Virus record (IMG/VR): IMGVR_UViG_2579778952_000005
Span: 1 to 11,814 of that record
Length of the DNA stretch: 11,814 nt
DNA from: a virus
Lineage: Duplodnaviria; Heunggongvirae; Uroviricota; Caudoviricetes
Direction: 5' to 3' (one strand)
Shown here: positions 8,604-10,169 of the stretch, piece by piece
Layout: each line of letters starts with the position of its first letter
How positions within the stretch are numbered: position 1 is the first letter of the stretch
The notes under the pieces: model-generated
Told to the model about the DNA's origin: nothing
Database searches by the model: none
What the model saw: only the letters and a program-made list of their open reading frames with translations
Program-made: the position numbers and the translations under genes

Positions 8604-9649
8604 CGCTTTATTACCATCCTCAGTTGATGCTGCAGCGCATAGCCCAGCTCTTTCGGAAGACGTTCACGCCGTATCCGCTCAATATTCTGTTTAAACGCCG
8701 TGGTCAGCGGCACCGCCATCGGGATTTTCACCACATCAATGGGGTAACGGTTTTTCCCGGCCACACGCTGCATAACATGCCACCGGCCGTTTTTCAGTTG
8801 CTGAATAAACGCGCCGGGAATACGACGGTTACCCACCACAAGCACGCTGCCGCCACCTTTCAGGGATGAACGCTGCCCCTTTTTACGACGCCTGCGGCGG
8901 GACAGGACAACCCGCGCATTACCCAGCTTGATTACGGGCAAATCCCCCCGGTTAACTTTGATTCTGGCCTGCGGATTTTTGACCGTGGCCCTTTTCAGCC
9001 TGGCCCTTTCCTTTACCAGTTTCCGGCGTACCTTTGTCTCACGGGCAACCTGTGACGCAGACTGCGATATCGCGGATGAAGCAACGCGGTTATCCTCATC
9101 AAAGGCAGCAAGTTCATCATAACCCGCCACATCCACTGACTTTTCACGGTAGTTTTTTGCCGCTTTACCGCCCAGGCACCAGAAGCCACGCCCATTGGTG
9201 AAACGCTTCATGGTGAGCGTGTTATCCCGGTGCTTTTTGCCATACCACGGGGCCAGCGCCAGCAGCGACGGAATATCACGAATAGTCGGCTCAACGTGGG
9301 TTTTCATAAAGTTCTCGGCATCACCATCCGTCGGCAACCAGATAAGGGTGTTGCGCTGCTTATGCTCTATGAAGTAGGCATAAACACCCAGCAGCATTTT
9401 GGAATAACCAACACGGGCAGACTTCACCACATTCACCTCGCGGATGTAGTCACTGCCCATCGCATTCATGATGGCCCGCTGAAAGGGCAGTGTTTCCCAG
9501 CGCCCTTCCTGGTATGCGGATTCTTTCGGGAGATAGTAACTGGCATCCGCCCATTCAACGGCAGTCTGTGGCTCCGGCCTGAACAGGGCTCGCAGCCCGG
9601 CGCGTACATCACGCCGCAGAATATCAATCTGACTGTTCGATATATTCAC
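8600..9649 (-). pseudogene. In-frame fusion: terminase large subunit A N-terminus (about 185 aa) joined to tail completion protein Z C-terminus (about 163 aa)
   Basis: Residues 1-185 (MNISNSQ...VVKSARVGYSK Walker A...DVAGYDELAAFDE) match the lambda gpA N-terminus. Residues 187-349 (NRVASSAISQSASQVARETKV...LRMVIKR) match lambda gpZ from about residue 30 to its C-terminus. GTG start at 9649 overlaps the Nu1 3' end by 26 nt, as in lambda. Confidence 0.85.
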
Positions 9650-10169
9650 TCAGCAACCCCGGTATCAGTTCATCCAGCGCGGCTGCTTTGTTCATGGCTT
9701 TGATGATATCCCGTTTCAGGAAATCAACATGTCGGTTTTCCAGTTCCGGAAAACGCCGCTGTACCGAGAGAGGGATCCCGTCAAGAATACTGGCAATTTC
9801 ACCTGCGATCCGTGACAGCACGAAAGTACAGAATGCGGTTTCCACCACTTCTGCGGAGTCTCTGGCATTCTTCAGCTCCTGTGCGTCGGCCTGCGCACGC
9901 GTAAGTCGATGGCGTTCGTACTCAATAGTCCCAGGCTGGAGATCTGCCTCACTGGCAGCTCTGTAATCCTCAACCTCTTTACGGAGTTTTTCATTTTCGA
10001 TATCAGCCTCCCTCTGTGCATACCACTGAATTGCCATGGAGGTATCAAATACAGATTCAACGCCCTTACCACCTCCGGAGACGCAAGGGAGTCCCTGAGA
10101 CTGCCAGCGTTCAATCGTTCGCGGATCCACGTTGAAAATTTCGGCAAGTTTCTTTTTATTAACCTTCAT
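9624..10169 (-). CDS. nu1: Terminase small subunit Nu1
   Basis: 181-aa ORF, same length as lambda Nu1. From [60 protein letters not shown] onward it is near-identical to lambda Nu1 as recalled. The N-terminal 70 or so residues (DNA-binding domain) are clearly diverged. Confidence 0.93.

Follow-up and report, generated by a model that had tools for sequence, protein, structure and literature searches.

The late region of a defective lambda-like prophage contains a small terminase gene, Nu1, that resembles phage lambda very unevenly along its length, and this raises the question of whether the gene was assembled from two sources and, if so, how much DNA was exchanged. The DNA concerned is a stretch of 11,814 nucleotides from a Caudoviricetes record (IMG/VR IMGVR_UViG_2579778952_000005), referred to here as the window. 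An initial annotation had described Nu1 as a mosaic with modest identity to lambda in front and near-complete identity behind, and had placed a recombination breakpoint at the domain boundary.

Genetic setting

The window holds a broken lambda-like prophage whose late genes are read on the minus strand. In that direction the order is cosQ/cosN (about 10313-10386), cosB (10191-10308), Nu1 (9624-10169) and an A'-Z fusion (8600-9649), followed by U, a V/L fusion, K, I, J, the tail-fibre genes and then IS1 insA at 43-318 (Table 1). Positions 367-11814 have a reported identity of 100.0% to three E. coli chromosomes, at a site adjoining potB. IS1 insA stands at the left end of the window (43-366), and as E. 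coli E400634 and its relatives match only from 367, the tail-fibre region of the source strain carries an IS1 insertion absent from those genomes. Scanned against Rfam, the window gave no match.

This prophage has lost most of its head genes and several tail genes. Gene A, which starts at 9649 and overlaps the end of Nu1 by 26 nt, is lambda-like at its N-terminus, as the initial annotation had stated (178/186 amino acids and 534/558 nt identical to lambda gpA), and its Pfam GpA_ATPase match stops at profile position 151 of 247. The fusion ORF (349 aa) consists of gpA residues 1-185 and gpZ residues ~28-190, with the Minor_tail_Z match spanning residues 186-348 of the ORF; the annotation of E. 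coli E400634 lists A' and Z' as pseudogenes. The deletion behind this fusion took the remainder of A plus all head genes. With gpA ending at residue 185 and running on into gpZ, the terminase in the window is a remnant in which pairing with a lambda-type gpA is non-functional, and the gpA beside Nu1 is not one able to form a holoenzyme.

A second internal deletion (window about 7093-8230, minus strand) has brought the major tail gene V, without its 3' end, against an L gene without its 5' end; G, T, H and M are absent through it, and the V and L remnants are pseudogenes in E. coli E400634. In gpA, a cluster of changes at codons 8-14, plus 21 and 37 (9605-9628, minus strand; VNR..HF to IDI..RD), falls where gpA is said to make contact with the C-terminus of Nu1. 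This patch is common to Escherichia phage IdasGreatGrand and is not 21-like.

Table 1. Features of the packaging region and of the truncated genes that follow it (window coordinates).
Feature	Position	Strand	Description	Basis
cosQ-like heptamer	10380..10386	-	GGGTCCT	Heptamer also present at this position in L005, where the right-end sequence is lambda-identical
cosN	10313..10357	-	Right part (10313-10345) identical to lambda	
cosB R3	10293..10308	-	AATCATGTCGGTACTT; 21-type, 15/16 to 21	Transferred from phage 21 annotation
cosB I1	10272..10284	-	Putative IHF site, TAACTATTTGTTT; 12/13 to annotated 21 I1	
cosB R2	10235..10250	-	Inverted relative to R3 and R1; 16/16 to 21	
cosB R1	10191..10207	-	TTTCATGTCGGACCCTG; 15/17 to 21	
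Nu1 (TerS)	9624..10169	-	Complete small terminase, 181 aa; 21-type 5' part, lambda-type 3' part	ORF list, Pfam, alignments
Nu1 codons 1-72	9954..10169	-	21-type winged helix-turn-helix DNA-binding domain	Alignment, PDB matches, junction sites
Nu1 codons 73-181	9624..9953	-	Lambda-type central oligomerisation region and gpA-binding C-terminus	Alignment
A'	9092..9649	-	Truncated large terminase gene (residues 1-185), lambda-like	Alignment, Pfam
Z, 3' part	8600..9091	-	Minor tail gene, fused in frame to A' via deletion	Pfam Minor_tail_Z

Two-part identity of the small terminase

The Nu1 ORF matches Pfam Phage_Nu1 (PF07471) with 298 bits (cut-off 30) over profile positions 2-164 of 164, and its place after cosN and cosB, overlapping A', is that of a member of this family. 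Its structure matches are 1J9I (E = 2e-22), which is lambda Nu1 residues 1-68; 7LWR (E = 3e-27), a 54-residue chain identical in sequence to phage 21 gp1 residues 2-54; and 6HN7_B (E = 6e-41). The same ORF in E. coli E400634 is annotated as 'terminase small subunit' (WP_000867505.1).

Nu1 of the window has the same length as lambda Nu1 (NC_001416, NP_040580; 1J9I, 6HN7), aligns with it without gaps and overlaps a lambda-like A in like manner. Along this alignment identity is 42/72 (58%) for residues 1-72 and 107/109 (98%) for residues 73-181, where L131I and G181D are the sole differences, so the mosaic described at the outset is borne out. In sliding windows of 20 amino acids, the profile suggested in the initial annotation as a check, identity to lambda begins at 0.5-0.6, a level kept to about residue 50, reaches 0.95 by residues 71-90 and stays at 0.95-1.0. 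Identity to phage 21 gp1 shows the opposite trend, with 0.8-0.95 over the first 60 residues and 0.2-0.5 over the last 80. The N-terminal domain had been called diverged from lambda; it is indeed so, and more specifically it is of 21 type. A tblastn search of the phage collection and direct alignment both gave 62/72 identical residues (86%) to 21 gp1 (OL657228) for residues 1-72, against 42/72 to lambda.

The recognition helix (residues 17-24) reads RTIERWQS, as in 21 gp1 and including E20 and S24, whereas lambda has RTIQNWQE, with Q20 and E24. The wing loop is SGGGKG in the window and SKGSKG in phage 21. We considered whether GGGKG, a match to lambda inside the 21-like domain, might be a micro-conversion tract, but its codons follow 21 at third positions and point changes are therefore the more likely cause. 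A further change in this domain, A44S (10038-10040, minus strand), is private to the window, with alanine at this position in phage 21, IdasGreatGrand and the representative of the protein cluster to which this Nu1 belongs.

Behind the junction the relationship is reversed. Codons 73-181 are identical to lambda at 320/333 nt, and amino acid identity to 21 is 49%. The TerL-binding role has been assigned to the C-terminal 30-40 residues of TerS (PMC9026076), and in the window residues 141-180 are the same as in lambda, with G181D alone differing. The large-subunit partner is lambda-type in the window and gp2-type in phage 21.

Extent of the exchanged block

To define the block we took as informative the sites that distinguish lambda from 21 and at which the window has the base of one or the other, and chose the best two-breakpoint partition. 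This partition places a 21-like block at lambda coordinates 46-402, corresponding to window 10312 to 9958 (about 360 bp). Within the block 120/135 sites side with 21, and beyond it 284/298 side with lambda (Fisher p = 1e-72), a contrast that would survive correction for the choice of breakpoints among roughly 1e5 possible pairs. Across more than 800 bp of flanking sequence (cosN, the C-terminal part of Nu1, and A) the match to lambda is 96-100%, and the block is about 86% 21-like, ranging from about 75 to 96% at the DNA level in 50-nt windows.

On the right, the last 21-type sites are at 9958-9959 (codon 71) and the run of lambda-type sites begins at 9954 (codon 72), just past the DNA-binding domain as delimited by 1J9I (residues 1-68); the breakpoint is thus where it had been predicted, at the domain boundary. 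Codons 65-71 are nevertheless a mixed zone, with three lambda-type sites and several sites matching neither phage, and because of this small lambda-like patch the crossover is not placed to the nucleotide.

The left junction lies well outside the gene. Divergence from lambda starts right after the conserved right part of cosN (…AAAATTTTCCGG), rather than at the Nu1 start codon, and covers all of cosB; the junction falls at the cosN/cosB border, with only four informative sites in cosN on the lambda side. The earlier proposal of an exchange within Nu1 holds for the right-hand end of the block, and needs to be extended on the left, where the block takes in the whole of cosB and stops only at cosN. 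Since the block continues in this way through cosB, the unit swapped was a DNA site together with the domain that reads it. The same block occurs in a Logan contig (L005) with lambda-identical DNA on both flanks, about 100 nt identical to the lambda right end preceding it.

The cos region

The cosB sites of the window were located through the sites annotated in the phage 21 record. They form a complex cosB of three R sites, with R2 inverted and a putative IHF site between R3 and R2, in the same R3-I1-R2-R1 order and spacing as in cosB-21 (OL657228). Base pairs 56 and 59 of R3 are G and G in the window and in 21, and T and C in lambda. These two positions, with TerS residues 20 and 24, are the genetically mapped determinants of lambda/21 discrimination (PMC4669245). 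At the level of sequence the window therefore carries the recognition helix, the R3 base pairs and the complex cosB of 21 packaging specificity, and its R sites, putative IHF site, bp 56/59 and helix match the determinants described previously (PMC4669245; PMC9026076).

The R-site core is CATGTCGG in the window and CGTTTCC in lambda. The window contains four copies of CATGTCGG, against 0.49 expected, and three of these are the R sites. The fourth (9728-9735, plus strand), inverted relative to R3 and R1, lies inside the lambda-like part of Nu1. We considered it as an accessory site like rR2 of N15; as lambda's own Nu1 has the same octamer there, it is probably a chance occurrence.

On the other side of the junction the cohesive-end segment of cosN is altered. 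Its 12 nt (10346-10357, minus strand) read GGGCGGAAGGCG where lambda and 21 have GGGCGGCGACCT; 5 of bp 7-12 are changed, and the stretch from the heptamer GGGTCCT, which we take to be cosQ, to cosN is also diverged. A 111-nt probe of this variant region was at least 80% covered in 83 complete E. coli genomes, with a 100% match in the one genome listed, and in the phage collection it found no close match (best 86% identity over 77%). The variant segment could be either a decayed site or a viable variant. Given the truncated gpA and the altered cosN, nothing in the window's module need be functional.

Origin of the mosaic

The exchange of DNA can be separated from unequal constraint by means of synonymous sites. 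Among codons that specify the same amino acid as in lambda, 22/42 (52%) differ synonymously in codons 1-72 and 10/107 (9%) in codons 73-181 (p = 5e-8). Affinity and synonymous divergence are thus both discontinuous along Nu1, and this fall from 52% to 9% across the junction indicates recombination and not unequal constraint. As judged from these comparisons, the two halves of the gene have different histories. A single history would require that the N-terminal domain evolved faster, perhaps under diversifying selection, with the C-terminal part held constant through contact with gpA. Domains that set DNA-binding specificity do diversify, and lambda and 21 are only 54% identical in theirs. However, lambda and 21 are equally diverged in the C-terminal half, at 50% amino acid identity and with 49% synonymous differences in both halves of Nu1, so there is nothing intrinsically conserved about this half. 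Upstream, the non-coding cosB is likewise 21-like, and phage 21 is a specific and closer relative of the N-terminal block. The synonymous sites and cosB together rule out constraint in place of recombination, and we regard the single-history account as scarcely credible. Uniform divergence along the protein, the outcome named beforehand as contrary to a mosaic, is likewise excluded by the identity profile, the site partition and the synonymous comparison.

The direction of the exchange is a different matter, as it is not readable from three sequences. The chimera could be the ancestral form and lambda (or 21) the derived recombinant, lambda having acquired its own cosB and N-terminal domain elsewhere. 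In E. coli genomes the chimera and the pure 21 type occur at about the same frequency, and lambda-type C-termini are paired with many other N-terminal types (e.g. P0004, P0005, P0011). Nothing decisive stands against this possibility, although the identities of flanks and block say only that the relationship on the lambda side is recent; we consider it unlikely on balance, while giving it real weight. As for the source of the block in our preferred reading, in which cosB and the N-terminal domain entered a lambda-type background, the identities mark the donor as a relative of phage 21 and not phage 21 itself. Among the 120 homologues listed, the N-terminal domain occurs only in P0001 and P0003, which are the same chimera, and in P0111, which has an unrelated C-terminus, and no pure parent of the window's exact domain was found. 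A class of E. coli sequences at 82% identity, considered as that parent, proved in the strain checked to be of pure phage 21 type.

Distribution

The 90%-identity protein cluster that holds the window's Nu1 (P0001, 'MULTISPECIES: terminase small subunit'; WP_000867505.1 in E. coli E400634) numbers 837 sequences and represents the same chimera, with 99% amino acid identity and the same cosB. A 521-nt probe across both junctions was compared with 5426 complete E. coli genomes and was covered to at least 80% in 1072 of them. In an even-step sample of the ranking (40 rows), the first five were full-length matches at 97.5-100% identity, among them E24377A (100%) and O157:H7 strains (97.7%). Five sampled rows at about 82% identity came next, and the one checked, strain PAR, was of pure phage-21 type. 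From this sample we estimate roughly 500 E. coli genomes with the chimera and a similar number with the pure 21 type.

Exchange in and around Nu1 is frequent, since other combinations of N- and C-termini exist. Lambda-type C-termini are found with several N-terminal types, some with crossovers further downstream in the conserved stretch (P0004), and the window's own N-terminal block is joined to an unrelated C-terminus at about codon 106 in P0111 and L005. In experiments, lambda recombined with resident prophages mainly in the immediate vicinity of cos (PMC3945230), in keeping with a junction at the cosN/cosB border. L005 (Logan ERR2538163_422, 1200-2300) has the same cosB, N-terminal domain and centre to codon ~106, followed by the C-terminus of P0111 (183 aa). 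No large-terminase gene follows the TerS-like gene in this contig, and a TerS-like gene without an adjacent TerL is possibly a satellite- or PICI-like arrangement.

Discussion

We consider it about 90% probable that the window carries a recombinant packaging-specificity module, comprising the cosB and the first 71 TerS codons of a phage 21 relative, set in a lambda-type late region. The mosaic structure, its boundaries, the co-transfer of a site with its reader and the agreement with mapped determinants are established from sequence comparison. According to this reading, the block (window 9958-10312) would be a unit of cosB (R3-I1-R2-R1) and 71 small-terminase codons, with lambda-type surroundings formed by cosN on one side and by Nu1 codons 72-181 and gene A on the other. 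If the phage were intact, the winged helix-turn-helix domain would attach the chimeric TerS to the 21-type R sites, and oligomerisation and recruitment of a lambda-type gpA would fall to its lambda-type central and C-terminal parts. The predicted outcome is a lambda-type packaging motor with the DNA specificity of phage 21. We infer such binding and packaging by analogy with two phages, one built in the laboratory and one isolated from nature.

The laboratory phage is the lambda-21 hybrid hy51 (Feiss laboratory), which has cosB21 and a chimeric gene made of the 5' half of gene 1 and the 3' half of Nu1, and which is viable and 21-specific with a lambda gpA (PMC4669245). As in the window, its cosB and the 5' part of its TerS, including the helix-turn-helix, are of 21 type and the 3' part is of Nu1 type (PMC4669245; PMC9026076). 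The two differ in that hy51 is a laboratory hybrid, whereas the chimera described here is natural, derives its block from a 21 relative (86% amino acid identity in the domain) and sits in a defective prophage. The crossover in the window is at codon 71/72; for hy51 the description speaks of the '5' half' and of a segment of some 600 bp at the left end. The natural phage, Escherichia phage IdasGreatGrand (PP925829), has the same cosB as the window and a Nu1 that is 99% identical in amino acids, but differs in having the canonical cohesive end GGGCGGCGACCT and a full-length gpA of 641 aa, 98% identical to lambda gpA. Natural TerS chimeras are on record for P22-like phages (PMC4669245), and our literature search found no paper on a natural lambda/21 chimeric TerS or on IdasGreatGrand. 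The module is a natural counterpart of hy51, of a kind already well known from laboratory hybrids and with a sequence that is abundant and annotated in public databases.

The Nu1 ORF of the window is intact in a prophage where A, the head genes and several tail genes have been deleted, and one may ask whether it has been kept for the benefit of the host, for example by poisoning the terminase of incoming lambda-type phages, whose gpA would be bound by a lambda-type end attached to a domain of the wrong DNA specificity. There is a precedent in the Rpp proteins of PICIs, which redirect packaging by binding TerS (PMC9026076). However, the deletions may simply be recent, expression of Nu1 would need late-promoter activity, and the ORF is one residue away from its copy in the viable phage IdasGreatGrand, which gives no sign of adaptation; retention for such a purpose is very improbable. 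In the same speculative vein, and hardly more probable, the retained chimeric Nu1 may be a packaging decoy, or the module may serve as a donor for specificity switching next to cos. If the former were true, Nu1, if expressed, could be incorporated into the terminase of a lambda-type phage that superinfects the cell, and that terminase would be misdirected, by analogy with PICI Rpp; if the latter, incoming lambda-type phages would switch their packaging specificity by recombination at the resident module.

The hy51-type arrangement, built in the laboratory decades ago, is therefore common in nature: about one in ten complete E. coli genomes carry it, as does at least one phage that has been isolated. 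Recognition of the module has a practical use in annotating the packaging specificity of prophages. The recombinant module is a clear natural instance of a textbook rule for the lambda-like phages, by which the DNA-recognition domain of TerS and cosB behave as one exchangeable cassette, separable from the part of the protein that binds the large subunit.
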